Source: a virus
Taxonomy: Duplodnaviria > Heunggongvirae > Uroviricota > Caudoviricetes
Strand: one strand, 5' to 3'
IMG/VR virus record: IMGVR_UViG_2526164609_000027
Length of the DNA stretch: 5,934 nucleotides
The translations under genes and the position numbers were made by a program. The notes beneath the pieces were generated by a model. The model had not been told where the DNA came from. It saw only the letters and a program-made list of their open reading frames with translations, and did not search any database. How positions within the stretch are numbered: the stretch's first letter is position 1; each line of letters starts with the position of its first letter. Shown here one piece after another: positions 1 to 5,934 of the stretch.

Positions 1-225
1 AACGCCCATAATGCGTGCAGTTGCCCGGCATCCAACGCCATTCATGGCCATATCAATAATTTTCTGGTGCGTACCGGGTTGAGAAGCGGTGTAAGTGAAC
101 TGCAGTTGCCATGTTTTACGGCAGTGAGAGCAGAGATAGCGCTGATGTCCGGCAGTGCTTTTGCCGTTACGCACCACCCCGTCAGTAGCTGAACAGGAGG
201 GACAGCTGATAGAAACAGAAGCCAC
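1..225 (-). CDS. insA: IS1 InsA (transposition inhibitor / N-terminal transposase part), 3'-truncated by window edge
   Basis: GTG start at 225-223 (minus). Reading frame translates without stops to [75 protein letters not shown], matching InsA as I recall it. The track ORF 42..254 (-) is the overlapping -1 frame, not the real gene. Confidence 0.85.
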
Positions 226-257
226 TGGAGCACCTCAAAAACACCATCATACACTAA

Positions 258-280
258 ATCAGTAAGTTGGCAGCATCACC
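258..280 (-). repeat. IS1 terminal inverted repeat (IRL, about 23 bp)
   Basis: Sequence ggtgatgctgccaacttactgat on the minus strand; this is the outermost IS1 end and marks the insertion junction at 280/281. Confidence 0.8.
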
Positions 281-517
281 AAGGCGAGCTTCATTTAACG
301 CCTTACGCAGTTGCAGAATTTCAGATTCCAGTTCAGCCACCGTGCGGGAACCAGGAGTACCGAGCCCTTTTCTGGCGGCGGTAACCCATTGTCCTAAAGT
401 GCCTTCAGGAAGGGATAATCGGGAAGCGCCTTCACTGATCGAAAGTTGATTTTCAAGAACCGTTCTGACAGCTTCGGCTTTGAACTCTTTAGAGTAACGT
501 TGGTTTTTTCTGCTCAT
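281..517 (-). pseudogene. IS3-family transposase OrfA (HTH + leucine-zipper part), truncated by IS1 insertion
   Basis: Translation MSRKNQRYSKEFKAEAVRTVLENQLSISEGASRLSLPEGTLGQWVTAARKGLGTPGSRTVAELESEILQLRKALNEARL has the HTH-then-heptad architecture of IS3-family OrfA. In the track ORF (254..517) the last 8 residues GDAANLLI and the stop are encoded by the IS1 terminal repeat, so the native ORF is cut at 280/281. Confidence 0.7.
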
Positions 518-2386: not shown

Positions 2387-2402
2387 GGTAATTTTCAGGA
2401 GG
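2387..2402 (+). promoter_or_regulatory. Conserved translation-initiation motif GGTAATTTTCAGGAGG (SD-containing), copy 1
   Basis: Exact 16-mer shared with 2803-2818; AGGAGG ends 4 nt before GTG 2407. Confidence 0.55.
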
Positions 2403-2406
2403 GCTT

Positions 2407-2829
2407 GTGGCAAAAGTTTTTACACAAGAAGAGCGGGAAAAAATTAAAGGGCAGGTTCTTGAACTCGTACGCCAGAGTGGGCGCGAGACGTTACGACAAC
2501 TGGAAGCTAAAACTGGGGCAACAAGATATCTGATGAGCGTTCTGGCCAGAGAGCTGGTTGCCAGTGGCGATGTATACAACTCTGGTTACGGGTTATTCCC
2601 GTCTGAACAGGCGCGTAAGGACTGGCAAAATGCCCGTAAAAAGCTCTCAAGGGCAAAGCTGAAGAAACCATCTGCGGTTGATCCGGACCTTATCTGGTCA
2701 TTACCTGACGGAGAAATACGTCGCTACGACAGTCGCCTAAACATAATCTGTCGCGAGTGCCGGAAGAGCGAAGTTATGCAGCGCATATTGTCGTTTTATC
2801 AGGGTAATTTTCAGGAGGTGATGGCGTGA
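2407..2829 (+). CDS. Hypothetical protein, possibly winged-helix-like DNA-binding N-terminus (function unknown)
   Basis: 140-aa ORF with GTG start 2407 preceded by AGGAGG at 2397-2402. The N-terminal segment LELVRQSGRETLRQLEAKTGATRYLMSVLARELVASGDV looks winged-helix-like by eye; a basic central stretch (RKKLSRAKLKK) follows. No family recognised. Confidence 0.65.
   Translation: MAKVFTQEEREKIKGQVLELVRQSGRETLRQLEAKTGATRYLMSVLARELVASGDVYNSGYGLFPSEQARKDWQNARKKLSRAKLKKPSAVDPDLIWSLPDGEIRRYDSRLNIICRECRKSEVMQRILSFYQGNFQEVMA
2803..2818 (+). promoter_or_regulatory. Conserved translation-initiation motif GGTAATTTTCAGGAGG, copy 2 (inside the 3' end of the upstream gene)
   Basis: Identical 16-mer to 2387-2402; AGGAGG at 2813-2818 is 7 nt upstream of GTG 2826. 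Confidence 0.55.
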
Positions 2830-3131
2830 GGGTGAGAGTCTATATCGCCGGTCCAATGACCGGGTATAAAAATTTCAACCGTGAGGCGTTTCACAATGCG
2901 GAAGAGGAACTGAAACGGGAAGGGCATACCGTCTTAAACCCGGCAGTACTTCCGGACGGGCTGACACAGCCGCAGTACATGGATATCTGCATGGCGATGA
3001 TTCGTTGTGTGGATGCGATTTACATGCTGAAAGGCTGGCAGCGGTCAGCAGGCGCTAAGGCAGAACTGGCGCTGGCGGAGAAACTGGGGCATGCGGTGAT
3101 TTTTCAGGAGACAGCCAGTGTGCAAGACTAA
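2826..3131 (+). CDS. DUF4406-family protein (nucleoside 2-deoxyribosyltransferase-like Rossmann fold)
   Basis: 101-aa ORF with N-terminus VYIAGPMTGY...F and a C-terminal motif GWQRSAGAKAELALAEKLGHAV, recognised by eye as the DUF4406 / NDT-like pattern with a conserved Glu. GTG start 2826 overlaps the upstream stop (GTGA); GTG 2832 is an alternative. Confidence 0.75.
   Translation: MRVRVYIAGPMTGYKNFNREAFHNAEEELKREGHTVLNPAVLPDGLTQPQYMDICMAMIRCVDAIYMLKGWQRSAGAKAELALAEKLGHAVIFQETASVQD
3098..3110 (+). promoter_or_regulatory. Conserved translation-initiation motif GATTTTTCAGGAG, copy 3 (inside the 3' end of the upstream gene)
   Basis: Shares the core TTTTCAGGAG with the two 16-mer copies; AGGAG at 3106-3110 is 7 nt upstream of GTG 3118. 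Confidence 0.5.
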
Positions 3132-3573
3132 TTACCAGGCATTACGTGAACGTTATTCACCAATTCAGGTGCCGGAATGTCCTGTTTGTGGCGATGAAAT
3201 GTCGATACAGCGCATATTTTCCAGAACGCATATTGTGTATGCCTGCACAGGTGAGGGGGATGATGGATATTTTAAAACTGGTCGAACTTTTGCGGATGAG
3301 CATTACCTGAAATCGCGCGTAACCGTCGTTGATGTTAGCGATCCTGACGTACTGGCTTTACTGAAAGAGCTGGAAGTTAAAGACAAACGCATTGCAGAAT
3401 TGACAGATGCGCTTACACAAATGATTAATGCGCACAAAACCACAATTCGTTTTGGTCATGAACGCATAACTGAATGTGGTGGTGATTGCGACTCGCCGGA
3501 AAAGATGATTTCAGAAAATCCGGATATCAGAATGGCAGAGGCTGTTTTGAGAGCAGGAATAAAAACTGAATAA
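3118..3573 (+). CDS. Hypothetical Cys-rich protein (putative zinc ribbon plus coiled-coil segment), function unknown
   Basis: 151-aa ORF with GTG start 3118 overlapping the previous gene by 14 nt. Contains CPVCGDEM...(16 aa)...C and ECGGDC motifs and a heptad-like stretch LALLKELEVKDKRIAELTDALTQMI. Alternative starts GTG 3166 and ATG 3199 lack a good SD. Stop at 3571-3573, 12 bp before the IS66-family end. Confidence 0.6.
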   Translation: MCKTNYQALRERYSPIQVPECPVCGDEMSIQRIFSRTHIVYACTGEGDDGYFKTGRTFADEHYLKSRVTVVDVSDPDVLALLKELEVKDKRIAELTDALTQMINAHKTTIRFGHERITECGGDCDSPEKMISENPDIRMAEAVLRAGIKTE

Positions 3574-3622
3574 TTAAATTTAGCAGTAAGCGTGTAGCAA
3601 GAACCGTATTGACGGGGATGTG

Positions 3623-5161
3623 TTATTCAGTCGGCAGTGCTACGCGCCAGGGGAGCAGTTCGCCGACCCGGTTTATCGGCCAGTCGGCTATGACGTCAAG
3701 TACATAGCGGAGGTAGCTTTCTGGCTCCACTCCGTTCAGTTTGCACGTCCCGATCAGGCTGTACAGCAGCGCTCCCCGCTCTCCTCCATGATCCGAACCG
3801 AAGAACAGGTAGTTTTTGCGGCCCAGACTGACCATCCGCAACGCATTTTCAGCGATGTTATTGTCCGCCTCAGCCCAGCCATCATCTGCATAGTACGTCA
3901 GCGCCGGCCACTGGTTCAGGGCGTATGCGAACGCTTTCGCCAGTTCTGAGTGTCGCGACAGGGTTTTCATCTTTTCACGCAGCCAGCTTTCCAGGGATTT
4001 CAGCAGCGGTTTCGTTTTCAACTGACGTTCGGCAAGGCGCTGCTCCGCCGTCATTCCCCTTATCTCTGCCTCGATGGCGTACAGTTCGCCGATCCGTTTC
4101 AGCGCTTCCTCCGTCAGGGCTGACGGGGTGCGAACGTGCACATCGTGGATTTTACGGCGGGCGTGAGCCCAACAGGCGGCTTCCGTTATCCGGCCATCCC
4201 GGTACAGCTCGTTGAACCCGGCGTATGCATCCGCCTGCAGTACACCACTGAACCCCGCAAGATGGGTCTGCGGATGGATGCCTTTTCTGTCCGGGCTGTA
4301 AGCGAACCACACCGCCGGCGCCAGCGTTGACCCGGCGTTACGGTCGTCACGAACGTAGGTCCATAACCGCCCGGTCTTCGTTTTCTTATTGCCTGGCAAC
4401 AGCACCGGGACAGGCGTGTCATCAGCATGGAGCTTACCGTCAGTCAGCACATAGTCCTGAAGCGCTTCTTCCAGCGGTGACAGTAGCCGGCAGCATGCAT
4501 CCACCCAGCCCGACAGCAGTGAACGACTCAGCTCCACGCCCTGGCGGCCGTACATTTCAGACTGGCGGTACAGCGGGGTGTGCTCTGCATACTTTGAGAT
4601 CAGCACGCGGGCCAGCAGCCCCGGTCCTGCGATACCCCGCTCGATGGGCCGTGAAGGCGCGGGGGCCTGCACGATGGCATCGCACTGAGTACAGGCATGC
4701 TTTTCACGTACAGTCCGGATAACCCGGAAGACGCTGCGCATCAACTCCAGCTGTTCGGCGGCATCCTCACCCGGATAGCTCAGTGAGCCTCCACATTCCG
4801 GGCAGCATGACGCTGCCGGCAGCAGCCGTTTTTCATCGCGGGGGAGTGATTCGGGGAACGGTTTGCGGGTGCGGGTTTGACGCAGCGGGCGCTGCACGGC
4901 CGGGTCGTCAACCCGACCGGTAAGGGTATCACTTTCTTTCTGAAGTGCCTTCAGGTCAGCTTCCATCTGTGCGATACGACGGGAGACTTTTTCGGAGCGG
5001 CTGCCGAAGTTCATCCGGCGCAGCTTATCCAGCTGTGCCTGCAGATGGTCTATTTCGCGTTCACGCTCGTTCAGCTTTTCCAGCAGGGCACGGTTCAGCG
5101 CCTCCTGTTCGGCAAGGAGACGTTTCAGTGCATTGATATCGTCAGGAAGTGAGCTGCTCAT
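3623..5161 (-). CDS. tnpC: IS66-family transposase TnpC (DDE transposase with N-terminal coiled coil and zinc-binding motif)
   Basis: 512-aa ORF. N-terminal coiled-coil-like stretch ([26 protein letters not shown]...), CxxC...CxxC motif (CCPECGG ... CTQC), then a long catalytic region; size and architecture as in IS66 TnpC. Confidence 0.9.
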
Positions 5162-5209
5162 ACCGGGTATATTACCAGGCTCATTCAGCGTCGACCAGGA
5201 TAAAGAGGC

Positions 5210-5557
5210 TTACAACATAGTCAGGGACGTAAGCAGTCTTTTAGGCTGCCGCCAGTCGATACCTTCAAGGAGCATCGCCAGCTGTGCCGGTGTGAGGAAC
5301 ACTTTGCCATCCCGGGCTGACGGCCAGGCGAAGCGGCCGCGCTCCAGCCGTTTGGTCAGCAGACACAGTCCATCGCCGGTAGACCAGAGGAGCTTTACCT
5401 GACTGCCATTACGCCCACGGAAGATAAAAACGTGACCTGACATCGGAGCGTCTTTCAGCGTCGTCTGCACCTTTGCCGCCAGGCCGTTGAAGCCATTTCT
5501 CATATCGGTGATACCGGCAACCAGCCAAATTTTGGTCCCGGAAGGTAACGGGATCAT
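5210..5557 (-). CDS. tnpB: IS66-family accessory protein TnpB (Orf2)
   Basis: 115 aa, MIPLPSGTKIWLVAGITDMRNGFNGLAAKVQ...LAMLLEGIDWRQPK, matching the IS66 Orf2 pattern (e.g. ISEc8 ...IWLVAG.TDMR..FNGL...) as I recall it; ATG overlaps the tnpA stop (ATGA). Confidence 0.9.
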   Translation of the reverse strand: MIPLPSGTKIWLVAGITDMRNGFNGLAAKVQTTLKDAPMSGHVFIFRGRNGSQVKLLWSTGDGLCLLTKRLERGRFAWPSARDGKVFLTPAQLAMLLEGIDWRQPKRLLTSLTML

Positions 5558-5934
5558 CGCTTCAGTTCCTGTATCAGCAGAGTCAGGAGCTTTTCGCTGA
5601 CATTGCCATTAAAGCGGAGCGTCCCGTGCCGGAACGTTACCTCACAGCTGATACTGAGGGTTTCCGGATCCTCTGCGAGCGATTCTGGCTGTTCGGCAGC
5701 TGCATCGAGAGTCACAGGAAGTAGCTGGGGGCTCTCTGAAGAAGGTAATAGCAGCTTTCCCTCGCGCCATTGTTGTCGCCATTTGAACAACAGATTGGCG
5801 TTAATGCCATTTTCAAGAGCAAGTTTTGAGATGGATATCCCGGGTTCACAGGAGGCAGCAACGAGCTGCTGTTTAAATTCGGGAGGATAATTAGGGCAGC
5901 CTTTTCGCCTGCCGGGATTCACATTTTTCTGCAT
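5554..5934 (-). CDS. tnpA: IS66-family accessory protein TnpA (Orf1, HTH); possibly 5'-partial at window edge
   Basis: 126-aa ORF with an HTH-like segment (PEFKQQLVAASCEPGISISKLALENGINANLLFKWRQQW) in first position of the IS66 gene triad. Its ATG is the last three bases of the window, so the true start could lie further out. Confidence 0.8.
   Translation of the reverse strand: MQKNVNPGRRKGCPNYPPEFKQQLVAASCEPGISISKLALENGINANLLFKWRQQWREGKLLLPSSESPQLLPVTLDAAAEQPESLAEDPETLSISCEVTFRHGTLRFNGNVSEKLLTLLIQELKR

Follow-up and report, generated by a model that had tools for sequence, protein, structure and literature searches.

A mosaic Ead/Ea22 family gene with a candidate Cys3-His zinc site beside an IS66-family element in an Escherichia coli prophage

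A tailed-phage sequence of 5,934 nucleotides (IMG/VR record IMGVR_UViG_2526164609_000027; this whole stretch is referred to as the window) contains a short Cys-rich reading frame, for which a first-pass annotation had recognised no family and had proposed a zinc-ribbon protein acting together with its DUF4406 neighbour. Does this frame encode an orphan metal protein, or does it belong to a known group of phage genes? It is a genuine, intact and already annotated Ead/Ea22 gene, and thus no orphan. Ead/Ea22 proteins are small, non-essential accessory proteins encoded in the early operons of lambdoid phages. The frame itself is present as it had been described, with the following signals:

3118-3573, plus strand: complete coding sequence with a GTG start, 151 amino acids, Ead/Ea22-like family protein (list of open reading frames)
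3105-3110, plus strand: Shine-Dalgarno-like CAGGAG, spaced 7 nt from GTG 3118 (sequence)

A family had been missed, because Pfam PF13935 (Ead_Ea22; the Ead/Ea22-like family, InterPro IPR025153) matches the product at 74.1 bits against a gathering threshold of 27 (E=2.2e-20), the alignment of aa 4-105 covering profile positions 3-90. The RefSeq protein WP_000335375.1 ("ead/Ea22-like family protein") is 100% identical to the product, and the annotated gene of E. coli FDAARGOS_944 shows 100% nucleotide identity. The protein also matches PHROG 368/1138, and a homologue search with it yields 1411 matches at E<=1e-3, with PF13935 on all matches listed. No NCBIfam model matches the protein, and no Rfam RNA family is found anywhere in the window. 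Other open reading frames inside the gene (3146-3310 on the plus strand; 3157-3303 and 3303-3443 on the minus strand) have no support and were rejected.

The N-terminus had been regarded as uncertain, and of the in-frame alternatives listed at that time ATG 3199 (codon 28) is real, while the GTG placed at 3166 actually lies at 3169-3171 (codon 18). We infer that translation starts at GTG 3118, because AGGAG precedes it by 7 nt and homologues conserve residues 1-20, L9 and R10 being common to lambda Ea22, which leaves little of that uncertainty. CAGGAG is part of a 10-mer, TTTTCAGGAG, which also precedes both upstream genes and occurs three times in the window (2392, 2808 and 3101) against 0.01 expected.

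Downstream of the gene, the window is occupied by an insertion sequence:

3586-5934, running off the window, minus strand: IS66-family element, ISEc22/ISEc8-like (breakpoint; NF033517, E=1.7e-139)
3623-5161, minus strand: IS66 transposase gene (NF033517 IS66 transposase)
5210-5557, minus strand: tnpB of the IS66-family element
5554-5934, minus strand: tnpA of the IS66-family element

Identity to the uninterrupted prophage ends at 3585, and the IS terminal repeat (GTAAGCG...) starts at 3586, 12 nt past the stop codon, so that the gene is left intact and is, as had been stated, the last one before the element. IS1, an IS3-family fragment and this IS66-family element all interrupt the prophage segment, as would be the case if the frame were a functionless remnant persisting idly in a decaying prophage. 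Such a remnant is scarcely credible, since the frame is full length with its Shine-Dalgarno sequence and start intact, identical copies are present in uninterrupted prophages, and its inserted module (described below) is kept across Escherichia, Salmonella, Cronobacter and Enterobacter. Moreover, purifying selection acts on the frame (comparison with an allele of 90% identity gives a dN/dS of about 0.30).

The usual module order of the family is retained in the protein, with an N-terminal helix, an insert of about 60 residues, DPDVLALL followed by a long helix, and a C-terminal cassette:

3118-3156, plus strand: family-wide N-terminal helix, aa 1-13 (..YQALRERY) (alignment A1; AF2 helix 6-13)
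3157-3339, plus strand: beta-rich inserted module, aa 14-74 (near-invariant residues; AF2)
3340-3474, plus strand: DPDVLALL motif and long amphipathic helix, aa 75-119 (AF2; heptad test; PF13935 positions 66-90)
3475-3570, plus strand: acidic helical C-terminal cassette, aa 120-151 (CGGDCDSPEKMISENPDIRMAEAVLRAGIKTE) (alignment; AF2)

The short helix at aa 5-13 contains the QALRE element common with lambda Ea22 (MSEINSQALRE), and L9, R10, V78 and L81 are invariant in alignment A1, lambda Ea22 included. A heptad-like region had been noticed between the two Cys motifs of the protein. AF2 confidently predicts a helix there (76-119, pLDDT about 86-97), but the heptad pattern is modest, L, I, V, M or F occupying 8 of 12 a/d positions, which is equalled in 232 of 5000 shuffles (p about 0.05). 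The family counterpart of aa 75-119 is the coiled-coil/oligomerisation segment. The combination expected of an Ead/Ea22 protein, an N-terminal helix, xPxxVLxLLxE and a coiled-coil helix, is therefore present (alignment A1 and AF2), albeit with this modest heptad signal, and so is a mosaic, exchangeable C-terminal domain. The K/R-G-E tail noted for Ea22 proteins (PMC7093339) is missing, as the protein ends in AGIKTE and the homologue consensus is AGIxxKGE. This tail is a minor, non-defining feature.

The insert has the signature C21-x2-C24-x18-C43-x18-H62 and a second motif, G55-R56-x2-A-D60-x-H62-Y63-x2-S66. CPVCG, one of the two motifs pointed out earlier, comprises aa 21-25 (nt 3178-3192), and the further Cys is aa 43 (nt 3244-3246). 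Among 145 representatives of 50%-identity clusters, C21 is kept in 141/142, C24 in 140/142, C43 in 142/144 and H62 in 143/145, each of the four candidate ligands thus being conserved in at least 98%; they are invariant in alignment A6, and the signature residues are near-invariant also in 120 close homologues. At E<=1e-3 the insert is present in 195 representative clusters, where it nearly always occupies residues ~12-78, and by itself, without the rest of the protein, it matches PF13935 (E=2.5e-6). In the AF2 model, which is only moderately confident in this region (pLDDT 58-80), strands are formed by 29-35, 38-42 and 68-71 and a helix by 59/61-66, in such a way that the knuckle is followed by the beta-hairpin 29-35/38-42, C43 comes directly after it and H62 is in the first turns of the helix. 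The near-invariance of C21, C24, C43 and H62 is consistent with zinc coordination by a Cys3-His set within the N-terminal module, and a Zn(Cys3His) site within aa 14-74 is probable. An extra Cys is found near position 51 in 78 of the 145 representatives, and because about half of them carry it, the fourth zinc ligand could differ between subgroups. H38 was rejected as a ligand, its position varying among R, H, S and Q in homologues; C2 and C120 are not conserved among homologues.

Is this module a zinc ribbon? Metal binding, as claimed before, is plausible, but a ribbon is not. The profile and structure searches that had been suggested as a check speak against it. Zinc-ribbon Pfam models reach 13-18 bits, below their cut-offs of 25-28, and these sub-threshold similarities (DUF2089, SprT and PADR1 ribbons, E 0.003-0.09) span only ~13-30 residues around the knuckle. 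Phmmer and profile searches of PDB sequences give nothing significant (E>=0.13), the knuckle-level similarities to LysW and the Rad50 hook (E 0.13-0.74; LysW, E=0.13) being rejected as chance. Foldseek finds no match below E=0.4 when PDB and BFVD are searched with the full-length AF2 model, or PDB with the N-module model; zinc-ribbon proteins do occur among the Foldseek matches, at noise level. In zinc-ribbon and treble-clef modules such as LysW (5k2m), RNAP Rpb9 and the serine-integrase ZD, a CxxCG knuckle is also followed by a beta-hairpin. A second knuckle is absent here, however, since the conserved module has a single CxxC (C21/C24) and the other candidates, C43 and H62, are a lone Cys and a lone His 18 residues apart. 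The likeness is only a resemblance, with no membership. Nucleic-acid binding, which had been proposed as the role, is likewise disfavoured because the protein is acidic, with a predicted pI of 5.3 for the whole protein, 5.1 for the Cys module and 4.6 for the C-terminal cassette, every module past the N-terminal helix (aa 14-151) being acidic.

ECGGDC, the other motif, corresponds to aa 119-124 (nt 3472-3489) at the edge of the C-terminal cassette, where AF2 predicts helices at 127-132 and 135-146 (pLDDT about 88-96) and Pfam gives no match. Most homologues end in unrelated C-terminal domains, and a homologue search with aa 96-151 alone returned a single candidate; the cassette relatives were collected from earlier homologue match sets. 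The cassette recurs in P0038, where it follows another N-module, and in P0224, where an extra insert precedes it. In the alignment, C124 is kept in all 12 cassette-bearing proteins; in Cronobacter and Enterobacter cassettes, C120 is replaced by Leu and a Cys occurs instead at the position of T109. Every version of the cassette hence keeps two Cys, C120/C124 here and the T109 equivalent with C124 there. Since C120 is Leu in those versions, CPVCG and ECGGDC form no single zinc ribbon. Both motifs had been seen correctly, but they do not make a joint unit around the coiled coil, as C120/C124 are confined to the few cassette carriers, and C120 varies even among these. ECGGDC would rather be part of a variable, swappable cassette outside the candidate zinc site.

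A partnership with the product of the upstream gene had also been proposed:

2826-3131, plus strand: DUF4406 protein, upstream neighbour and no proven partner (PF14359, E=9e-38)

The DUF4406 protein belongs to PHROG 355 and is nucleoside 2-deoxyribosyltransferase-like, and its gene overlaps the Ead/Ea22 gene by 14 nt. The latter follows a replication gene, DUF977 and DUF4406, and the hok/RusA/Q region is downstream. It is thus positioned between the replication genes and Q in an IS-riddled Rac/Qin-like E. coli prophage, not in the exo-xis region of the pL operon that is required of Ea22 sensu stricto; homologues occur at both kinds of location. According to the explanation set out at the beginning, the product would be a zinc-ribbon nucleic-acid binder with Cys motifs flanking a coiled coil, working in a cassette with the DUF4406 and DUF977 proteins. 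The CxxC knuckle and the weak ribbon similarity agree with this, as do the 14-nt overlap, taken as translational coupling, and the adjacency of DUF4406 in 30 of 30 E. coli matches. On the other hand, these 30 co-occurrences all come from copies of a single prophage segment that are at least 90% identical. Synteny was assessed in eight contexts, namely seven homologue contexts and the E. coli matches; the 2 loci yielded by a scan of GTDB species-representative genomes did not suffice for statistics on synteny. Outside the near-identical E. coli copies DUF4406 is no longer the upstream neighbour, and more distant homologues are preceded by ES18 gp42, by unrelated proteins of 121, 134, 151 and 156 aa, or by DUF1627. 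The proposed action with the DUF4406 protein is therefore unsupported, as upstream neighbours vary among homologues. Together with the sub-threshold ribbon matches, the single knuckle, the lack of a structural match, the non-conserved cassette around ECGGDC and the acidity of the protein, this makes a zinc-ribbon cassette protein very improbable.

The closest relatives of the gene in sequenced phages are ES18 gp41 ("similar to P22 eaD"), ST64B, D6 and P884B11, as judged by sequence. The Cys3-His module is present in ES18 gp41 and Xuanwuvirus P884B11 (70-73% identity over aa 1-92/95), in phage D6 (about 60% over aa 6-95) and in the Sb32/33 region of ST64B (43% over aa 1-133), although the coiled coils of these relatives are longer and different and their C-terminal domains differ. 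ES18 gp41 has 274 aa and is encoded within the pL "ea" region, adjoining int/xis. Lambda Ea22 (NP_040612, 182 aa), the C-terminal domain of which has been solved by NMR (PMC10834534), likewise matches PF13935, at 100.9 bits as against 74.1. It shares with the present protein the QALRE helix, the xPxxVLxLLxE motif ahead of a coiled coil and a mosaic build of three parts, with an overall identity of 28%. In contrast, lambda Ea22 has no ~60-aa Cys3-His insert, its coiled coil is much longer, its alpha/beta dimeric C-terminal domain is unrelated, and it ends in KGE and is encoded in the exo-xis region of the pL operon, whereas the present gene follows replication genes. [quoted passage not shown] In an alignment with lambda Ea22, ES18 gp41 and others, the N-helix and DP.VL.LL.E are common and the C-termini are unrelated.

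Stx-phage Ea22 variants V1-V3 (933W, phi24B and P27) and Ead-like proteins of Sf6/HK phages also have an extra, beta-strand-containing segment of ~63 aa that separates the N-helix from the coiled coil, and their acidic C-terminal domains are swappable. Their insert is of the common "ATPG.W..." type, in which both the CxxC knuckle and GR..AD.HY..SR are lacking. With P0038 as the query, this type is retrieved from 258 phage records; phage records with the Cys3-His type number only 11. In P0038, an N-module of the Stx/Sf6 type is joined to exactly the C-terminal cassette of the gene studied here. Possibly, though with somewhat less than an even chance, the ~60-aa insert C-x2-C-x17/18-C-x18-22-H with GR..AD.HY..SR represents an undescribed zinc module that takes the slot filled elsewhere by the Stx/Sf6-type insert and serves as a target-recognition surface, while the Cys pair kept in every version of the cassette could provide a second metal or redox site that subunits of the oligomer share.

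What might such a protein do? Ea22 is expressed early, tetrameric and pro-lysogenic, and has mosaic acidic C-terminal domains (PMC10834534, PMC7093339, PMC8614690); the tetrameric and pro-lysogenic properties were established experimentally for lambda, phi24B, 933W and P27 only, tetramers having been reported for lambda and P27 Ea22 (PMC10834534). The pro-lysogenic Ea22 proteins of lambda and Stx phages differ from the present protein in that they are devoid of the Cys3-His module, have other C-termini and are encoded in the exo-xis (pL) region. We consider it about 80% probable that the gene encodes a mosaic Ead/Ea22 member with a Cys3-His insert, acting as an oligomeric early accessory protein. 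The Cys3-His set would hold one structural Zn2+ and keep the small insert together, and the long helix would oligomerise the protein, as in the tetramers of lambda and P27. Through the terminal modules that it displays, the oligomer might then engage a protein of the host or the phage, and this binding may tune an early decision on lysis-lysogeny or host survival, as for lambda/Stx Ea22, without being an essential step. On comparative grounds, the protein is thus likely an oligomeric early accessory protein modulating lysis-lysogeny or a host interaction.

The extreme shuffling of N- and C-modules can also be read as an arms race, in which the protein would be an anti-immunity or exclusion factor whose terminal modules target host defence or a rival phage. 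The gene resides among accessory "moron-like" genes, with DUF977 being a Ren-like exclusion protein (PHROG 142); fusions of EaD/Ea22 proteins with an OLD inhibitor related to P22 EaE occur in some cases, and such loci have been proposed as anti-immunity gene reservoirs (2026 preprint, 10.64898/2026.07.10.737580). PADLOC defence models, however, give no match to the protein, no direct evidence presents any Ead/Ea22 protein as an inhibitor, and the phenotypes reported for the family concern only lysogenisation, induction and survival, so that an anti-immunity function is unlikely.

As an annotated Ead/Ea22 gene, 3118-3573 should therefore be dropped as a novel zinc-ribbon protein or a member of a DUF4406 cassette. 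[quoted passage not shown]

On the evidence of sequence comparison, the ORF encodes an already-annotated member of the known, poorly understood Ead/Ea22 family. The first-pass annotation had recognised no family; this is overturned by a match of residues 4-105 to PF13935 (Ead/Ea22-like protein; E=2.2e-20, 74.1 bits against a cut-off of 27) and by the RefSeq annotation of a gene in E. coli FDAARGOS_944, 100% identical to the ORF DNA, as "ead/Ea22-like family protein" (WP_000335375.1). PHROGs 368 and 1138, neither with a known function, match the product as well. Of 5426 complete E. coli genomes, 29 carry a full-length copy at >=90% identity, and 1411 homologues in a large protein collection reach E<=1e-3, with PF13935 present in all 120 among the matches listed.

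3118-3573, plus strand: ORF, 151 aa, GTG start (ORF list)
3105-3110, plus strand: Shine-Dalgarno-like CAGGAG, 7 nt ahead of GTG 3118

The ORF is thus present as first described, although its N-terminus had been considered uncertain. Of the alternative in-frame starts proposed, ATG 3199 (codon 28) exists, but "GTG 3166" does not, the internal GTG sitting at 3169 (codon 18). GTG 3118, also the RefSeq start, is taken from sequence as the true one, because CAGGAG precedes it, residues 1-20 are kept in homologues (with L9 and R10 invariant in the alignment and also present in lambda Ea22, MSEINSQALRE), the Pfam match begins at residue 4, and a start at 3169 or 3199 would lose the family N-terminal helix or the invariant C21 and C24, respectively. 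The dN/dS of ~0.30 against a 90%-identical allele indicates that this frame is the selected one. Identity to the uninterrupted FDAARGOS_944 prophage stops at 3585, and the IS66-family terminal sequence GTAAGCG... begins at 3586, 12 nt past the stop codon; the ORF is therefore intact, and the breakpoint confirms it as the final gene before that element. Short overlapping ORFs in other frames were rejected as lacking support, and an Rfam search of the window found no RNA family.

When aligned with lambda Ea22, ES18 gp41 and a mixed set of homologues, the product divides into four modules.

aa 1-13: family N-terminal helix
aa 14-74: insert (Cys module), lacking in lambda Ea22
aa 75-119: DPDVLALLKELE and a long helix, counterpart of the family coiled coil, which is much longer in lambda Ea22
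aa 120-151: small acidic helical cassette (alignment and AlphaFold2)

This order is that of the published mosaic layout of Ea22 proteins, in which a short N-terminal region is followed by a coiled coil and by acidic C-terminal domains unrelated to one another, with an additional ~63-aa segment in Stx-phage variants (PMC10834534, PMC7093339, PMC8614690); family membership and modular architecture are established for the ORF. An AlphaFold2 run on a 67-sequence alignment gives a single long helix at aa 76-119 (pLDDT ~86-97) and two cassette helices, 127-132 and 135-146, also at high pLDDT. The heptad-like region noticed earlier between the Cys motifs corresponds to the long helix, and its coiled-coil signal is real but modest: the best register places L/I/V/M/F at 8 of 12 a/d positions, equalled by 232 of 5000 shuffles.

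The modules are exchanged among homologues. In one of them (P0038), a near-identical cassette sits behind the common Stx/Sf6-type N-module (258 phage records), and another (P0224) has an additional ~88-aa block just before the cassette. The N-module with the cysteines is less common, with 11 phage records including ES18, ST64B, D6 and Xuanwuvirus P884B11; when 1.84 billion cluster representatives were searched exhaustively, 195 clusters had this module at E<=1e-3, almost always at about residues 12-78 of proteins 100-360 aa long. The best-supported reading is an oligomerising early accessory protein. The module shuffling suggests, as a plausible but less likely alternative, that the product may be an anti-immunity or exclusion factor, as does the fusion of an OLD inhibitor related to P22 EaE to some EaD/Ea22 proteins noted in a recent preprint (10.64898/2026.07.10.737580); a PADLOC search gave no match. 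Otherwise unrelated Ead/Ea22 C-terminal domains share a tail with the consensus AGIxxKGE (P0007, P0012-P0014 and lambda Ea22), and a C-terminal tripeptide "K/R-G-E" has been pointed out (PMC7093339); the ORF ends in AGIKTE (window 3550-3570). The common tail may be a recombination boundary at the gene 3' end rather than a protein function.

The cysteine motifs reported earlier, CPVCG (aa 21-25) and ECGGDC (aa 119-124), are present, with a further Cys at aa 43, and conservation sets the N-terminal cysteines apart from those of the cassette. Among 145 representatives of 50%-identity clusters, C21 (141/142), C24 (140/142), C43 (142/144) and H62 (143/145) are near-invariant, as are G25, G45, G55, R56, D60, Y63 and S66, while H38 and C2 show no conservation among homologues. 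The invariant columns of a 69-sequence alignment are exactly C21, C24, G25, C43, G55, R56, D60, H62 and S66. An extra Cys lies at or near the Y51 position in 78 of the 145 (e.g. DDGCFKTGR, DDKGCHYAEGR), and the remainder, the subgroup of the ORF among them, show Y, S, W or G at that site. A division of the family into Cys4(+His) and Cys3-His subtypes is possible.

3442-3489, plus strand: cassette-related positions aa 109/120/124 (alignment of C-terminal homologues)

The cassette occurs in only ~10 of 121 aligned sequences (query and 120 closest homologues). C124 is kept in all 12 cassette-bearing proteins, query included, whereas C120 is Leu in Cronobacter, Enterobacter and related cassettes, which carry Cys at the T109 position. 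Every version thus has two cysteines, in different pairs (C120 and C124 in E. coli; the T109-position Cys and C124 in Cronobacter/Enterobacter), and the partner of C124 could have been relocated, as part of a possible metal or redox site. Since ECGGDC belongs to an exchangeable cassette and C120 is not kept, the two motifs do not form a single ribbon around the coil, as had been supposed.

In the AlphaFold2 model, CPVC lies in a loop ahead of a beta-hairpin (29-35/38-42), C43 directly follows the hairpin and H62 is at the start of helix 59/61-66, with pLDDT of only 58-80 for the module. Such a layout would fit a small Zn(Cys3His) site of the knuckle-hairpin-helix type, in which C21, C24, C43 and H62 would cluster. 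The Pfam ribbon models DUF2089, SprT and PADR1 match over the knuckle region only and stay at 13-18 bits, below their cut-offs of 25-28; phmmer and the family profile against all PDB sequences gave nothing below E=0.13, nor did Foldseek below E=0.4 (full-length model against PDB and BFVD, N-module model against PDB). The conserved module has one CxxC, a lone Cys and a His instead of two knuckles. A zinc ribbon was therefore rejected, and the module is probably a zinc-binding mini-domain inside PF13935. The first-pass annotation was mostly right in its sequence observations and only partly right in interpreting them: a metal site is likely, in another configuration. Its proposal of nucleic-acid binding is unsupported, and the acidity of the protein (pI 5.3; Cys module 5.1, cassette 4.6) argues against a generic activity of this kind; acidic C-terminal domains like this cassette are reported for Ea22 variants.

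The ORF resides in a lambdoid (Rac/Qin-like) prophage, in the order HTH regulator, YdaT-like, replication initiator (358 aa, PHROG 3729), DUF977, DUF4406, ORF; hok, DUF968, RusA and Q genes lie downstream of the ead gene in uninterrupted relatives.

2407-2829: DUF977 protein, two genes upstream of the ORF (PHROG 142 "Ren-like exclusion protein", E=7e-47)
directly upstream, overlapping the ORF by 14 nt: DUF4406 protein (PHROG 355, nucleoside 2-deoxyribosyltransferase(-like), E=5e-48)
3586-5934: IS66-family element (breakpoint against FDAARGOS_944)

The product had been thought to act with the DUF4406 protein, which is encoded upstream in 30 of 30 E. coli matches. The 30 matches repeat a single segment at >=90% identity and hence reflect common descent, not independent linkage, and distant Cys-module carriers follow unrelated genes (ES18 gp42; 121-, 134-, 151- and 156-aa proteins without Pfam domains), that of Cronobacter being a different 121-aa protein with no similarity to ES18 gp42 or DUF4406. 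A dedicated partnership is therefore unsupported. The gene upstream of P0038 is DUF1627. Family members lie in the pL "ea" region beside recombination and int genes (ES18, locus L016) or in the post-replication region (this window, loci L005 and L018).

The 10-mer TTTTCAGGAG has exactly three copies in the window (2392-2401, 2808-2817, 3101-3110; 0.01 expected), each 5-8 nt ahead of the start codon of the consecutive genes DUF977, DUF4406 and ead, and the first two share GGTAATTTTCAGGAGG. It may serve all three genes as a ribosome-binding or module-boundary sequence, like the "boundary sequence" annotated beside phage Sf6 ead. In FDAARGOS_944 (L001 5395-6140), the ydaT-like and replication genes flank a minus-strand gene for an "ECs1072 family phage-associated protein"; the corresponding window stretch (1224-1290) is 65 nt only, without this module. 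One prophage of E. coli C8 has two different ead/Ea22-like genes ~500 bp apart in the post-replication region (L002 8001-8456, 8944-9543), with DUF7167 and a frameshifted gene of the TraR/DksA family between them, resembling the orf73(TraR)-ea22 pairing of the lambda exo-xis region. By eye, the leftmost part of the window (1-268) appears to be an IS1 end (terminal repeat GGTGATGCTGCCAACTTA, minus strand), and IS1-like annotations are also among the whole-window matches. An IS3-family orfA-like gene (87-aa ORF, 254-517, minus strand) has its 3' end cut off by this putative IS1 end. IS1, IS3-family and IS66-family elements bracket the prophage segment.

Ea22 of lambda and Stx phages is tetrameric and expressed within minutes, and deletion of ea22 leads to faster induction and lower lysogeny (PMC10834534, PMC7093339, PMC8614690). 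The invariant Cys3-His signature of an Ead/Ea22 sub-class is mildly new, not being discussed in the accessible Ea22 literature. For the ORF product we infer zinc binding, oligomerisation and a phenotype: zinc would stabilise the N-module, and the coiled-coil stalk would oligomerise the protein and display the N-module and the swappable cassette for binding a host or phage protein. The product would, by analogy with Ea22 of lambda and Stx phages, bias the early lysis-lysogeny or host-survival outcome.
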